From a virus (taxonomy: Duplodnaviria; Caudoviricetes), in the IMG/VR virus record IMGVR_UViG_3300011008_000999: DNA of 64,000 nt; one strand, 5' to 3'. Positions within the stretch are counted from its first letter, which is position 1; the number at the start of each line of letters is the position of its first letter. Shown in pieces: positions 9,135-20,534 of this stretch. The notes below the pieces were generated by a model. It ran no database searches. It saw only the letters and a list, made by a program, of their open reading frames with translations, and had not been told where the DNA came from. A program made the translations under genes and the position numbers.

Positions 9135-10819
9135 TCTTATTTATAAATTCTAATCTTTTGTAAGCAATCTACAGGAAACTCAAAATTATCTTCCTTTCGA
9201 ATATTGATCTCTCTGCAAAGATCATACAAAGTCTCATACTTATCTGCATTACTATCAAGATTGGCGATCATAAGATTAAATGTATTAGGACAGTGCTCTT
9301 CTAAGAACTTAGTTACAGACTCAAAGTTCTCTTTAGAATCACTTAATCCATACATAAGAATTTCATGTGTTTCATGTAAATCACCAGAAATAAATCCTGC
9401 GCATTCCATGTCATTTTCTGAAGTACCTCTATTATACTTTTCATAGTCTTTAGAGGCTTTATCAAAGAATGTTAAATGCTCTTCTAATTCTGCGTACTGC
9501 ATACTGATACCTCCTAATATTCCCATTCACTATCAATAATGAAATTCTGTACACGTTTAGCAAAAGCTAACGCAGATTTAAGAACTTCAATATATTCTTC
9601 AGTATCAGCAAAAGAGTCTGAACACATTCTCATACCATGCGATACTTCAGTTCTCTCAGGATCATATTTATATTTAACAGGTGTACCATCAAAAGATGGA
9701 TTACCAGCTCTGTAGAGTCTAACTTCTACTACATGCTTTTCAGCTGCATCAGAGCTTTTAACTTTAAGACCTTCCCAAGGAGTATCATTTACTCCAATAC
9801 CAGATTCTTTTACTAAAGTAAAATCACCTTCTGAAAAAATTACTTCTAACATATTTATACCTCCTATTCTACAAGCTTGTATACATAAGATTGTTCTAGT
9901 AAATCACCTATAGAGTAACCTCTTGAAAAATACGAATGTTTTTCTAAGAACTTACGATAAGCTTTTACAGTGTAAGCTTTTTTAGTTCTATATACAATCT
10001 CATATACTGAATAAATCTTTTTTCTTTTACCAATATCATGTATATTTATTGAATCGAATTCTGGTCCAATAAAATCAAAGTCAGCTATTTCTTCACAGCC
10101 AGTTGAAAATTGATTTTTGAATATTTGTTCTAATGCTTGATTATCTTCAAATGTTTCTTCAAGTAAATTATCAAAACAGTCATATTCATCTTCAGCATCA
10201 TATATCTCTGTGATTATATTTGTACCATTTTTAGACTTATATTCTACTATGGTATTATCTTCAACAAATTCTCTAAATTCAAAGATATACTTATGCTCAT
10301 TATATTCTTTAGCATTATAATCATCTATCTGTGAATTTAATGAATACTTAGTATTAAGCTGCACGATAAATACCTCCTTCTAAACAAAATGACCTGCTTC
10401 TTTCGAAACAAGTCATTTTTCACATTCTTACTTATCTAAAACTAATTTCATTCCTTTGCCCCAAGTCATAGTTTCTACTGGTGCATAGAGATCATTGAAT
10501 TTCTGACTTTTCTTAGGCTTGATATTGATCAGAGTAACTTTATTACCGTCCAAACTAATATCTCCTACTAATTGAAGTTCAGCTAATTCAGCTTCGACTT
10601 CCTCTTCTGTCATCTCTGATACATCAGCAATTTTAGGAATGTCTAATTCAAATTCATTGCTGTTAAAGTAACTTCCTAAGTAACTTAAAATCTTTTTCAT
10701 TTTGACTCCTTTGCTAGATATTTATATCTTACATTATTATAAATAAATAGCTCTTAGCCAAAATAAAAGGAGTACAGTTTTCACTATACTCCTTTGATTT
10801 TAAGTTGTAAAATTAGGAA

Positions 10820-11956
10820 TTACAGAATAGCATCAATTGCGTTCTGAACACAATCTACATACTCATTCATATCATTCTCTTCAAGTACCTCGATGAGATC
10901 TTCAAGGGTTTTCTTGAGTTCGGCCTTGGTAGCGATCTGTCTTACAGGTCTCTTACCACCGGAAGTAATATAAAGAGTGAAGGTGTAGAATGCATCTGTA
11001 GGCTCAACTTTAGAGATACCACAAAGTCTACGTCTACCATTATCCGTGCCGTCCTTATCTGCAGTATAGATAGATACATTCATTGCATCCTTTGCATTTG
11101 ATCTAGATACAACAAGCTTAGTACCTCTACCACCTCTTTCAAGGTTATCACAGAAATCTTCGATATTAGTATAGAGTGCTTCCCATTCCTTCTGGTATGC
11201 TTCAGGTGTAGAACTTGTAAGATGTGCTACAAGACCATCTACATAACCTTCGAATTCAGAGCCATCTGCATTCTGGATTGCCTTAAATACCTTAGAGTTA
11301 GATCTAACAAGAGAGATAACCTCGTCCTTAGGAACCTTAGGACATACCCAAGTATCTTCAGGAAGACCAACTTCCTCATTAATCTGCTTTCTAAGAGCGG
11401 CGTGAACATCCTTAAAGTCTGCTTTACTTACAATATTACCCGGTCTCTGAGGAAGAGTACTACGAAGATCATCGTCATTTCCATATCTCTTGGAAAGTTC
11501 TACTGCTTCCTTATACATAGCCATAAGATCAGCAACTAACATACCACTGAAATCAGGATGATATGCAGAGAAGAATCTGGTTGTAGGAATATCACCTACT
11601 GCAACAGTAGAAGCATTCTGTTCAAACTCATCAGGATGATTTGCTTTGTATTCTTTCCACTTCTTATCTGCAGCTTCGATCTGAGCTTTATACTTAACAC
11701 CCCACTCAGCATTGTGCTCATGCTCTGCCCAAGTGTCCTTGACCTCATAATCAGTCTTAGCAGTATGAGTTACATAAGTAGGATCATCAGTACCAATTAC
11801 GATTGCCTTAATATCAGCTGCTACGTCTCTTGCAACATTGTGAATGAAAAGAGGAGTAGCACTATAAGTACCATCGTCATTAGGCTTGAAATATCGCTCA
11901 TCGATATTTCCAGACAGCTGAAACTTCTTTGTTGACAACATTTCAAATAAATTCAT
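10820..11956 (-). CDS. Hypothetical protein, paralog of 27474-28226
   Basis: Shared blocks such as YFxxNxDGTYSxTPLxIxNxARD and WKEYKAxHPDEF. Confidence 0.75.
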   Translation of the reverse strand: MNLFEMLSTKKFQLSGNIDERYFKPNDDGTYSATPLFIHNVARDVAADIKAIVIGTDDPTYVTHTAKTDYEVKDTWAEHEHNAEWGVKYKAQIEAADKKWKEYKANHPDEFEQNASTVAVGDIPTTRFFSAYHPDFSGMLVADLMAMYKEAVELSKRYGNDDDLRSTLPQRPGNIVSKADFKDVHAALRKQINEEVGLPEDTWVCPKVPKDEVISLVRSNSKVFKAIQNADGSEFEGYVDGLVAHLTSSTPEAYQKEWEALYTNIEDFCDNLERGGRGTKLVVSRSNAKDAMNVSIYTADKDGTDNGRRRLCGISKVEPTDAFYTFTLYITSGGKRPVRQIATKAELKKTLEDLIEVLEENDMNEYVDCVQNAIDAIL

Positions 11957-13067: not shown

Positions 13068-13547
13068 TTAATCTGCACTATATTCTCTATACCAATTTTC
13101 ATCATCAGAGTCTAAGTATTTATATTCTGGTGCAGGACCAATATTTGGTCTTCCATACTCACCATCTCTAAAATATTTTACTTCTGAGTCAGTTCCAAAT
13201 ATAGCAAACTTAAGTACTTCTTTGCTCCAACCATCAGGAACTCCCATATCTTCAGGATGATCCTTATACTTATCTACTGCTTCTTGAAAATATCTATCGT
13301 GACCACCATAAATAATCTCTTCTACACCTGAGATATAGAGGAAATTGACTAACTTATCTATATTCTCACGATCAGATTTCCAACCATGAATAATAGAATA
13401 TATAACTTTTTCTGATGGCTTCAAAGAAGTTTCATCATCTACATAAATGAATCTCTGTGGTACGTGAATACCCTGACTCTTAGGAATAATAAGTACATTA
13501 GCACTAGAGCTGTTTGTTTCAAACATTGAATGTCTAATCTGAATCAT
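13068..13547 (-). CDS. FETNSSS-motif family protein 4
   Basis: MIQIRHSMFETNSSSAN. Confidence 0.75.
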   Translation of the reverse strand: MIQIRHSMFETNSSSANVLIIPKSQGIHVPQRFIYVDDETSLKPSEKVIYSIIHGWKSDRENIDKLVNFLYISGVEEIIYGGHDRYFQEAVDKYKDHPEDMGVPDGWSKEVLKFAIFGTDSEVKYFRDGEYGRPNIGPAPEYKYLDSDDENWYREYSAD

Positions 13548-13559
13548 ATTATCATCTCC

Positions 13560-13982
13560 TTATCTATGAATATCTAAAACCGTAAAATCTTTTGGAATAT
13601 TTTTATATTCATCATAATCTGGCGTATCTAAATATATTGAACTTGAATCAAATAAAAATGCATCGAGGTCTTCTTGTTTCATATTATAGCCAAACATATA
13701 AGAATCATAATCAAATGTATCACCTACATCATTAATTATATTGATACCTTTATAGCTTAAATACTGAATAAATTCTGCTGCATGACCTTCATCTTCAGCT
13801 TTATTATACATAAAAGCTAATTTATCTTCTACAGAAGCATTTTTATCTAAACTATATGTATCAACCATTAATCTAGACATTTTTATTTCTTTAGGTATTT
13901 TTAATGACGGATTAGGTGGAATGCAAAATACATCTGCACTAGAACTATTAGTCTCAAACATCGACTGTCTAATTTGTATCAT
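13560..13982 (-). CDS. FETNSSS-motif family protein 5
   Basis: MIQIRQSMFETNSSSAD. Confidence 0.75.
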   Translation of the reverse strand: MIQIRQSMFETNSSSADVFCIPPNPSLKIPKEIKMSRLMVDTYSLDKNASVEDKLAFMYNKAEDEGHAAEFIQYLSYKGINIINDVGDTFDYDSYMFGYNMKQEDLDAFLFDSSSIYLDTPDYDEYKNIPKDFTVLDIHR

Positions 13983-16115: not shown

Positions 16116-16664
16116 TTATGCTATTAAAGAAGAAATATGATAACCTCTAACAAAATCATATGTTTCTTCTACATTTAAAAGTGTTTTAGCTGTATCTTCA
16201 ACAAAGATTATTTCTCTGTTGTGTTTATCATGAATTTCTTTTAACTTTTCCAGTTTTTCCTTTGAATTTCTGACATGAATCACATTTTCTTCTTTTATAG
16301 TTGGAAAAAATTTTTTTATAGCTTCATTTTTTCCTTTTTCGACATTTTCCTGCGTTACAGTTAAAATATATACATCTTCTTCATATAATTCATTTAATAT
16401 ATACTGCATTGTTTTAGGAATTTTAACGTTTTCATAAATATTATGTAATTTTGAATATTCGTTTATATCATTATCTTTACAAGGAAGAAGTCTATCATTT
16501 GCATAATCAAAATGTGTTAATGTTCCATCAAAATCAAATACAATAGTTTTAAATTTCAGTAAAGATATAAGATCCAAAACATTTCTTATATATTCTTCTT
16601 TTAAGCTAGATATATCAATATCATTTAACATTCTTCCAGCGTTTATAATATTATCACCAAACAT
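16116..16664 (-). CDS. HAD-superfamily hydrolase
   Basis: FDFDGTL motif I and FVED motif IV. Confidence 0.7.
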   Translation of the reverse strand: MFGDNIINAGRMLNDIDISSLKEEYIRNVLDLISLLKFKTIVFDFDGTLTHFDYANDRLLPCKDNDINEYSKLHNIYENVKIPKTMQYILNELYEEDVYILTVTQENVEKGKNEAIKKFFPTIKEENVIHVRNSKEKLEKLKEIHDKHNREIIFVEDTAKTLLNVEETYDFVRGYHISSLIA

Positions 16665-16702
16665 ATATTAAAATTAAACTTACCTTTCTTGAATAATTAT
16701 TT

Positions 16703-16785
16703 CTCCCTCATAGAATATAATATGCAGCTTAGCGATGACGGCACTATTACTCAAAGACTTATAGCTTCCTTTGCTCCCTGCATAT
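16703..16785 (-). ncRNA. Structured RNA motif, copy B
   Basis: Homologous to 17529-17610 with compensatory changes in two stems. Confidence 0.6.
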
Positions 16786-17214
16786 TTAATTGTAGAGATA
16801 CTCGTATATCTCCAATGCTGACATTTCTTTTTCTTCACCAGCAATTCTAACTTTAATCTTTTCATCCTTGTCAAATTCTCTACCAGTGATCCAAACTTTT
16901 CCTGTCCAATCAGTAGGCTTGTAGTCTGCCATATCATTCAGACCTATTTTCTGCATCTTCTTATTTCGAGAATACATAACAGATCTACCTATTCTCAAAA
17001 TTTCTGCAGCTTCTTGAACTGAGTTAGCAACTGCAACTACACCATTCATTCCTTTAAAAGGATAAAATTCTGTCTGTTTTATATCAACTAACGCAACTGA
17101 TATTTTATTGTTATGTTCAATTTATTTTAGGCACTAGGCCTAAATACAATGGAATATGACATTCCTCAAAGTAACACTATTGTGCGAAATGAGTCCTCGT
17201 TTAGCTGTCTCCAT
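16786..17214 (-). CDS. FtsK-like ATPase fragment 2 with 12-aa intein C-tag, interrupted by a 24-nt stop-containing insert
   Basis: RBS AAGGAGGTG; METAKRGLISHN|SVTLRNVIFHCI[24 nt]EHNNKISVALVDIKQTEF aligns without gaps to the post-Walker-A region of the 42370 gene; in frame with ORF 16786-17049. Confidence 0.75.
17119..17145 (-). other. Candidate translational bypass (byp-like) element or micro-intron
   Basis: ATT TAG GCC TAG TGC CTA AAA TAA ATT: matched ATT codons, stop right after the first, hairpin TTTAGGC-CTAGT-GCCTAAA. Confidence 0.55.
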
Positions 17215-17521
17215 TGTAATCATCACCTCCTTTTATAAACTGTTTAGTTTGAGCTATATTTTTACATTGTTTACAACAATACATCTGATAACCTCTTGTA
17301 AAGTTAATGTACTTAGTAGGTTTATTACAAACTAAACATTTCCCTTCATTATTAGATTTTATATATGTATCATAATATTCTTTGCAAGTAATCTGTTCAT
17401 CAAATCTAATATGCGCAGACAGATAATTACCATTTTGAAAAGTCTGATTACATATTAGACATGTCATTGGATTATTTTTTATTTTAGGTACATATTCTTT
17501 TCCACAAATAAGACATTTCAT
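17201..17521 (-). CDS. Zinc-finger protein homologous to the N-terminal domain of the intron endonucleases; no nuclease domain
   Basis: CxxC...H...EYYDxYIK...CLVCNKPTKY...GY..YC..C as in 37323, 39323 and 41284. Confidence 0.7.
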   Translation of the reverse strand: MKCLICGKEYVPKIKNNPMTCLICNQTFQNGNYLSAHIRFDEQITCKEYYDTYIKSNNEGKCLVCNKPTKYINFTRGYQMYCCKQCKNIAQTKQFIKGGDDYNGDS

Positions 17522-17528
17522 GTTATTT

Positions 17529-17610
17529 CTCCTTAATAGAAATATAATAAAGCAGCTTGATGATTAAGGCATCATTATCTCTTTAGTTAGCTAGACCAAA
17601 GCTACCTGCT
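17529..17610 (-). ncRNA. Structured 5'-leader RNA motif, copy A (putative RBS-sequestering pseudoknot)
   Basis: GCAG/CUGC closing stem, two hairpins, loop CCUUAAU complementary to AUUAAGG overlapping the RBS of 17521. Confidence 0.6.
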
Positions 17611-19708: not shown

Positions 19709-20390
19709 TTATTCACTCACTTTAAGTTTTAACATATACAAAATTACTGCTTTGAGAATATCGCAAGTATAGTTTTTATTGATTTCTTTGTTATTTTCTT
19801 TACATCCGCCACCACAAATATCTGAAATAGAACATCCTTGACATTTTTCAGGTAATGTAAAGTTATAACCTAACTTGTACTTATGCTGCGCTTTAAGTTC
19901 TCCAATAATATCATCAGTTTCAAATATATTGCAGATTTTTTCTTTATATACCGTAGTCTGACATGGATAAATGTCTCCATTTACAAAGACTGTAATAAGT
20001 TTTTCACCGGCAGTACAACCTTCATACATAGTATTTATCATGATATTACTGAACTTAAATCTATTGTAGTAATCATAATTATGTTTCTTGAGAATGTCAA
20101 GTACATTACACATTTTGTCTATAATGACATTCATATCCATTTCACCACAGAAGAAATGATCTAAATATACTCCCCAACCAAGATTTCTTTCTGCTATCCA
20201 TTCAGCAAGTTCTTCAATATCGTCAAAGCTATTCTTATCAATAACTGAAGAAATTTCAATAGGTTTATTGTATGCAATAACTCTATCAATATTCTTTTTT
20301 ACAATTTCTGCAGAACTTTCACCATTATGAAATGGTTTAGAATAAGAAAATCCATCTAATGAAATACTAAAACTAACATTCTTATCTTTA
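19709..20390 (-). pseudogene. C-terminal half of a radical SAM/SPASM protein lacking CxxxCxxC
   Basis: ISLDG, C-GEK...GDIYPC and CxxCxxxxxCxGGC SPASM motifs; 5' end replaced by a FETNSSS gene fragment. Confidence 0.7.
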
Positions 20391-20534
20391 GTATTCAGTA
20401 TCAGCACTCCATCCATATTCTCCGCCTGTAAGAAATACTTTGTGTGGTACACTGACTGGAACATCTTTTGGAATTACTAATACATGAACACTAGAACTAT
20501 TAGTTTCAAACTGTCCAAGTCTAACCTGAATCAT
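20388..20534 (-). pseudogene. FETNSSS-motif family protein 6, truncated (48 aa, not in ORF track)
   Basis: MIQVRLGQFETNSSSVHVLVIPKDVPVSVPHKVFLTGGEYGWSADTEY*. Confidence 0.7.

Follow-up and report, generated by a model that had tools for sequence, protein, structure and literature searches.

On comparative sequence evidence, an uncatalogued folded RNA leader is real and widespread and heads homing-endonuclease genes in many uncultured phages. At least 76 distinct cores or sequences of the family were collected by viral and metagenome searches. Two copies lie in the stretch of 64,000 nt that was analyzed (the window), which belongs to IMG/VR virus record IMGVR_UViG_3300011008_000999. The source virus is a jumbo phage; its genome is a complete record of 331,944 nt with terminal repeats, a G+C content of 32.7%, 40 tRNA calls and one tmRNA.

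The minus strand carries almost all genes of the window, and both leader copies are located on it (core A, 17609-17552; core B, 16781-16724), as in the original prediction of two look-alike copies. A search of the whole genome (332 kb) with the family model detected these two copies only; the next match reached 17.3 bits. The features of the region are as follows.

17519-17609, minus strand: leader copy A, intact (91.4 bits), a predicted three-way junction plus P4 hairpin ending at the ATG of an endonuclease remnant
17606-17609, minus strand: copy A, 5' strand of P1, GCAG, aligned as pairing with CUGC at 17555-17552
17605-17602, minus strand: copy A, J1/2, GUAG
17581-17601, minus strand: copy A, P2 hairpin CUUUGG/CUAAAG with a 9-nt loop and the self-complementary hexamer UAGCUA at 17593-17588
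17575-17580, minus strand: copy A, conserved junction J2/3, AGAUAA
17558-17574, minus strand: copy A, P3 UGAUG/CAUCA with the putative anti-RBS loop L3, CCUUAAU, at 17569-17563
17557-17556, minus strand: copy A, J3/1, AG
17524-17544, minus strand: copy A, P4 hairpin UAUUUCU/AGAAAUA; its loop L4, AUUAAGG (17537-17531), is the partner of L3
16701-16781, minus strand: leader copy B (57.8 bits), an orphan without start codon and with a P4 of 4 bp
16764-16759, minus strand: copy B, L2 hexamer CUAUAA with a C.A mismatch
16741-16735 and 16711-16705, minus strand: copy B, L3 CCGUCAU and L4 AUGAGGG
16672-16696, minus strand: deletion scar behind copy B, where by synteny the related phage G001 has a gene for a 605-aa endonuclease-like protein
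17201-17521, minus strand: 106-aa Zn-finger ORF, by comparison with G001 an in-frame internal deletion of a 368-aa homing endonuclease
16786-17214, minus strand: conserved phage gene of about 134 aa (ATG at 17214) with a weak FtsK-like match, not part of the RNA element
17119-17142, minus strand: stop-containing 24-nt insert ATT|TAG...ATT with a small hairpin, a candidate for ribosomal bypass

Single-sequence folding of the two copies was similar to that of shuffled sequences (z = -1.1 and -0.45). The evidence for the fold is comparative, because single-sequence folding was no better than chance. In a 57-row alignment of related sequences, pre-selected by a descriptor that demanded pairing in P1 to P3, 98.5% of the cells pair and 14 of 18 pairs have changed on both sides, with a covariation score of 0.746 as compared to 0.224 for shuffled alignments and at most 0.16 with partners slid. 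Covariation among phage and metagenome homologs, for which the original prediction had proposed a search, is thus present. The rows were not pre-selected for the L2 palindrome, the L3-L4 contact or P4, and RNAalifold recovers the same three-way junction unaided.

Searches with short patterns gave a similar picture. A first pattern at the DNA level, derived from the copies in the window, retrieved mainly chance matches in coding regions. With a sequence-only pattern on the junction bases, 22 of 24 viral matches were family members, and metagenomes yielded further members. A second pattern, which demanded none of P1, P3, J3/1 or the SD contact, retrieved 16 further sequences in which the junction is complete; all 16 have GG before UAG, and J3/1 AG as well as a perfect L3 contact were each found in 15. 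The J3/1 and GG bases are no artefact of the first search, since a second, independent pattern recovers them. A pattern for B-type copies (GAGC..GAGTAA) revealed no new member in 80 loci scanned, among the matches listed. In bacteria, the motif was found in two genome bins only, one Clostridiales and one Lachnospiraceae; when 151 genomes from the same class as the Lachnospiraceae bin were searched with the model, with 27 candidates scored per genome, the seed genome alone was detected. Comparison by blastn with 50,697 cultured-phage records gave nothing significant. The Rfam search that had been proposed was run and returned no family match: the window at gathering thresholds, and the region and the members at E up to 10, produced chance matches only. 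In a literature search with thin coverage of subscription papers, neither the motif nor kissing-loop leaders of homing-endonuclease genes nor palindromic phage RNA dimers were found described.

The predicted fold runs in the order P1 (4 bp, often extended), GUAG, P2 (6 bp, C-G base), AGAUAA, P3 (4-6 bp, up to 12), AG, P1', an AU-rich linker and P4, with about 13 nearly invariant junction bases. The covarying stems quoted in the original prediction exist, except that P2 of copy B has 6 bp and the seventh quoted pair (A/G) is mismatched. P2 contains 17 G.U as compared to 5 C.A across the family; the sense strand is favored because G.U outnumber C.A. Deviating members occur. Three copies with a P3 of 10-12 bp lie in one 9.7-kb contig, L371 (3367-3464, 4953-5060 and 6737-6841), and one of them combines the palindrome GUCGAC with a GGAG junction. 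In L314 (1501-1587) and L110 (7099-7191 and 7637-7725) P2 is shortened and the palindromic loop is deleted, and two of these three copies have no gene behind them.

Full Watson-Crick complementarity between L3 (6-7 nt) and the downstream segment of the same member was found in 46 of 60 cases, as compared to 143 of 3456 pairings with foreign tails. A P4 of at least 4 bp (4-9 bp) encloses the L3 target in 54 of 57 members (null mean 15.9, maximum 28). The SD starts in the P4 loop and continues into the 3' stem, and P4 sequesters the spacer together with the 3' portion of the SD; in copy A, the SD AAGGAG extends across the loop and the 3' stem. Where a gene follows, the start codon almost always lies 7-12 nt beyond the end of the L3 target. 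Member L149 has no SD and pairs through UUAGGG/CCCUAA 8 nt before its ATG; hence, the L3 contact follows the site of initiation rather than the SD letters. Loss of the L3 contact in gene-less copies is a partly circular test, the gene having been defined by its SD.

The original prediction had further claimed covariation of the loop with the SD region and a three-way junction plus pseudoknot controlling translation. The loop pairs with the SD region in both copies, with a G.G mismatch in CCGUCAU/AUGAGGG of copy B, and a comparison of A with B leaves one true compensatory change only (A-U to C-G); the intact copy B of the relative has a perfect contact, CCUUCAU/AUGAAGG. The junction and the loop-to-RBS pairing stand, and the contact is a kissing loop rather than a pseudoknot, since the SD-side strand sits in the P4 loop. 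Translational control remains likely from the sequence comparison. P4, the self-complementary L2, the association with endonucleases and a resemblance to the RNA int-alpA had been overlooked.

L2 contains a perfect self-complementary hexamer in 52 of 59 cores (shuffled loops 7.3, maximum 18 in 5000) and in 20 of 27 distinct loops (null 2.9). The hexamers are UAAUUA (17), UCAUGA (14), UAGCUA (8), UCGCGA (7), UGAUCA (5) and UUGCAA (1); GUCGAC of L371, a member found by the model alone, is a seventh palindrome. Self-complementarity has been kept through double changes, and the two central, adjacent bases are complementary (AU 37, GC 19). Within a single strand, neighboring bases are unable to pair; the L2 partner would therefore have to be another copy of the RNA. 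Among orphan copies, 5 of 10 have lost the palindrome, as compared to 4 of 52 with a gene (P = 0.004, uncorrected for kinship). Hexamer duplexes have energies of -5 to -8 kcal/mol for five of the palindromes, and the commonest, UAAUUA, has -0.4 kcal/mol; hence, a UAAUUA dimer would need an extended duplex. Such an extended duplex is favored by a median of 10.5 kcal/mol, as compared to 4.6 kcal/mol for shuffled loops. The two copies of the intact relative have different palindromes (UAGCUA and UCAUGA) and therefore would not pair with each other; some other contigs carry two copies with like palindromes.

From these data, we consider it quite likely that leader RNAs form homodimers through L2. 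The layout of L2, two bases, the hexamer and one base, was found in 45 of 53 loops. The loop of the HIV-1 dimerization initiation site (DIS) has 9 nt in a 2+6+1 layout, which corresponds to that of the leader. In HIV-1, a purine-flanked palindrome starts a kissing complex that is then converted to an extended duplex (PMC2275147), and both RNAs have a hairpin exposing a 6-nt palindrome that changes yet stays self-complementary. The DIS palindromes are GC-rich and serve genome packaging, whereas those of the leader are mostly of the type U-N4-A, often AU-rich, and located in an mRNA leader. The likeness is an analogy, not homology, and the leader dimer is putative.

The genes behind the leader point to its context. 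Pfam analysis of 39 downstream ORFs detected HNH_3 (8), DUF7487 (7), GIY-YIG (5), NUMOD4 (3), NUMOD1 (3) and single matches to PDDEXK_5 and Vsr/DUF559. DUF7487 corresponds to a homing endonuclease in PHROG, several other ORFs are called homing or HNH endonucleases by PHROGs, and a few (L065, L107, L169) have no nuclease match. Near-identical leaders precede different nucleases in L047/L055, L043/L060, L045/L063/L089 and L124/L152. In the same sets the upstream tRNA or flank is near-identical too, and the ORF seems to have been swapped right at the start codon. No link was found between the L2 hexamer and the nuclease family, some family labels having been assigned by eye. Upstream of the leader, a tRNA end was found in at least 17 of 62 members, otherwise a promoter or stop codon; the leader sits 0-15 nt after tRNA CCA ends or stop codons. 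In L047, a ROOL RNA (RF03087, 298 bits; 10510-11086, minus strand) lies in a tRNA cluster shared with two leader copies.

The original prediction that the two copies flank a unit of a Zn-finger gene and an 'FtsK2' gene did not hold: each copy is the leader of its own homing-endonuclease gene, and an unrelated host gene, whose FtsK-like match is weak (PHROG 1358, E = 6.5e-8; Pfam at or below cut-off), lies between them. The idea that the copies are the ends of a mobile unit was ruled out by synteny with G001. The 106-aa ORF behind copy A consists of residues 1-9 joined to 272-368 of the 368-aa endonuclease of G001 (97% identity); residues 10-271, including the PD-(D/E)XK-like nuclease motif, are lost. 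The 605-aa endonuclease-like gene that follows copy B in G001 is absent entirely from the window. Its deletion explains the lack of a good start codon after copy B, which had been described correctly. Copy B itself has decayed, with C.A in the palindrome, G.G in the kiss, P4 down to 4 bp and no ATG. As judged from sequence comparison, both window cassettes are relics, with a nuclease-dead gene behind A and none left behind B.

The 605-aa gene itself (L340, 3060-4877, minus strand) encodes a Zn-finger, DUF7487 repeats and a nuclease-like segment, and it ends in a methyltransferase-like domain (DPCSGWG and CPPY motifs; weak TIGR01177 match). In the window, a gene for a HAD-like hydrolase (16116-16664, minus strand; weak 5'-3' deoxyribonucleotidase PHROG match) lies 37 nt past P4 of copy B. 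Several window ORFs (13068-13547, 13560-13982 and 20388-20534, minus strand) share the start peptide MIQ(I/V)R..FETNSSS.

The middle gene is broken by small inserts in the window and in L001, L004, L005, L068, L085, L092, L093, L095, L096, L110 and L171. Inserts in this FtsK-like gene have 5 to about 33 nt and occupy three fixed codons (after SVTL/R, HCI and VDI). TAG opens nearly all of them, and in most the last codon is identical or similar to the codon before the stop (ATT..ATT, CTT..CTT, ATT..ATA). Hairpins are frequent in the inserts, many of which shift the frame; homologues of 131 aa without interruption exist as well. By sequence, this looks like short ribosomal bypassing of the T4 gene 60 type (bioRxiv 10.1101/2022.08.31.505936), with splicing as another possible explanation. 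A recoded TAG was rejected: TAG ends 23 long ORFs, no tRNA with a CTA anticodon is called, and many inserts shift the frame. Additionally, an insert of about 420 nt follows the KQTE codons in L001 (2927-3344), L095, L096, L122, L133 and L171; it is absent in the window and, by eye, looks like a group I intron.

The closest known RNA is int-alpA (Rfam RF02996), of type sRNA and without assigned function, which is attributed to Weinberg et al. 2017 (PMC5737381), the name being absent from the main text. Both RNAs have a three-way junction, UA after P1, GA-N-AA between P2 and P3, a U-rich linker and a pyrimidine-rich L3 that can pair with the SD region downstream, and 3 of 12 parsed int-alpA members have L2 palindromes of the leader type (UGAUCA twice, UAGCUA once). 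They differ in the linkers (G-UA-G and A-GAUAA in the leader, UA-G and GAAAA in int-alpA), in P2 (6 bp with a 9-nt loop as compared to 2-4 bp in most int-alpA seen), in the base of P2 (G opposite A as compared to G-C), in J3/1 (AG as compared to CU), in P1 (a 4-bp core with variable extension as compared to 8 bp) and in the SD target (one, inside the P4 loop, as compared to two). Furthermore, the palindrome is near-universal in the leader only, and the leader is set before homing endonucleases of AT-rich phages. RF02996 (cut-off 35.8 bits) was not detected at E up to 10 in G000, G001, G002 and G005, genomes that hold the leader family or are close to it, and was absent from short-window scans of leader members; of 19 int-alpA loci, the leader model scored a single one, at 13 bits (E about 1). 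The leader probably works as int-alpA probably does and may share ancestry with it, and it is not a member of RF02996.

Other RNAs share single traits with the leader. The class II cobalamin riboswitch hides the RBS by an L5-L13 kissing loop; we take this to be the same device, in an RNA with the B12 box and T-loop that the leader lacks. Theta ribozymes lie just 3' of phage tRNAs, a position presumably like that of many leaders, which are without the HDV nested double pseudoknot. Flavivirus xrRNA1 is a three-way junction with L3 paired downstream; junction and L3 contact are alike, and the leader has no 5' threading strand. No Rfam match to the cobalamin riboswitch, theta ribozyme or xrRNA1 was found.

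It is fairly probable that the leader is a portable cis-acting mRNA brake that damps translation of free-standing homing-endonuclease genes. P4 and the L3-L4 contact would form a double lock blocking 30S binding, and only a trickle of the toxic nuclease would be made even within strongly transcribed operons, where the cassette often follows a tRNA directly. With less assurance, L2 may pair two transcripts by a kiss and then an extended duplex, and the dimer may stabilize the locked fold as the transcript concentration rises. A stronger version, in which dimers via L2 set whether the L3-L4 lock on the RBS holds, so that the nuclease doses itself by transcript count and different palindromes act as orthogonal channels for the separate cassettes of a genome, is a tentative idea and somewhat doubtful. 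Some observations speak against a brake: no clear unlocking route is seen and upstream contexts vary, the approximately 13 near-invariant junction bases exceed the needs of simple RBS masking, the UAAUUA duplex is weak, and a few downstream ORFs have no nuclease match. RBS-hiding structures are known for T4 I-TevI, I-TevII, I-TevIII and segB and for Aeh1 mobE (PMC2988022). These T-even masks likewise hide the SD of a homing-endonuclease gene by RNA structure, but each is a single hairpin specific to its gene and is opened by a late promoter embedded in it (PMC2988022), whereas the leader is one conserved four-helix fold with a tertiary contact, common to unrelated nuclease families and without a proven internal promoter.

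A temporal switch as in T4, where the fold silences read-through and a short mRNA open to translation starts at a promoter within the leader, could use AGAUAA and the next U, which read as a -10-like GATAAT; a promoter-like match was found there in 38 of 71 members and the extended TG-A-GATAAT in 30 of 62, and T4 provides the precedent (PMC2988022). However, the -10 match is circular with the search pattern, and no -35 was detected (best 1-2 of 6 in 58 of 62, for promoters other than phage-specific ones). Moreover, the TG is absent in both window copies, B-type copies have AGTAA, 10 members lack the -7 T at a position that covaries as an RNA pair, and int-alpA has GAAAA in place of GATAAT; such a switch is quite unlikely. 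More unlikely still is a self-cleaving or processing ribozyme, possibly dimeric, that cuts the nuclease mRNA free of the tRNA or gene upstream, with SD pairing being secondary. The compact invariant junction core would suit it, as would the spacing of 0-15 nt behind tRNA CCA ends or stop codons, but Rfam searches (E up to 10) gave no match beyond chance, including to hammerhead, twister, twister-sister, pistol, hatchet and HDV/theta, and to our knowledge the topology is not that of HDV, twister, pistol or hammerhead. Furthermore, the L3 contact tracks the start codon, and the structural relative int-alpA has different junction bases.

The conserved, pocket-like junction could also belong to a switch gated by a ligand or protein (a riboswitch, or a site for the nuclease or a phage factor), and P2 with the hexamer forms a near-palindrome in DNA, so that the palindrome might be a DNA operator or a mutational artefact. 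The downstream genes share no metabolism, being nucleases of unrelated folds, and a metabolite riboswitch is unlikely because of this gene context. The same hexamer occurs with several nuclease families and the reverse (some family labels by eye), which argues against an operator, and the axes of hexamer and P2 do not coincide, as would be unexpected for a dimeric DNA binder or template-switch correction; this group of explanations is less probable again. The least probable reading is a roadblock of the xrRNA type, with junction and L3 contact shielding the mRNA from 5'-3' decay by RNase J after tRNA 3' processing and thus stabilizing rather than repressing it. The gross topology is that of flavivirus xrRNA1, the leader lies at the 5' end of the cistron, and the two bacterial-genome matches are Clostridiales and Lachnospiraceae bins. 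However, the partner strand always overlaps the initiation region and is located in a hairpin loop 8-27 nt away, and no conserved 5' threading strand was found. An antisense RNA was rejected: there is no clear excess of antisense promoters (one bin with 7 as compared to a null maximum of 6), and G.U pairs favor the sense strand.

The translational brake, which we prefer, has precedent; the DIS-like loop is the surprising part. Detailed knowledge of how homing-endonuclease toxicity is controlled comes mainly from the gene-specific T4 hairpins. The leader would add one portable four-helix RNA of 90 nt that is reused by HNH, GIY-YIG, PD-(D/E)XK and Vsr-like nucleases, which appear swappable behind it. 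The covarying palindrome is strong comparative evidence for dimerization of a phage mRNA leader. The natural variants provide ready-made compensatory and orthogonal pairs, so that both claims can be tested with short RNAs, and int-alpA-like orphan RNAs would gain a concrete, testable function.
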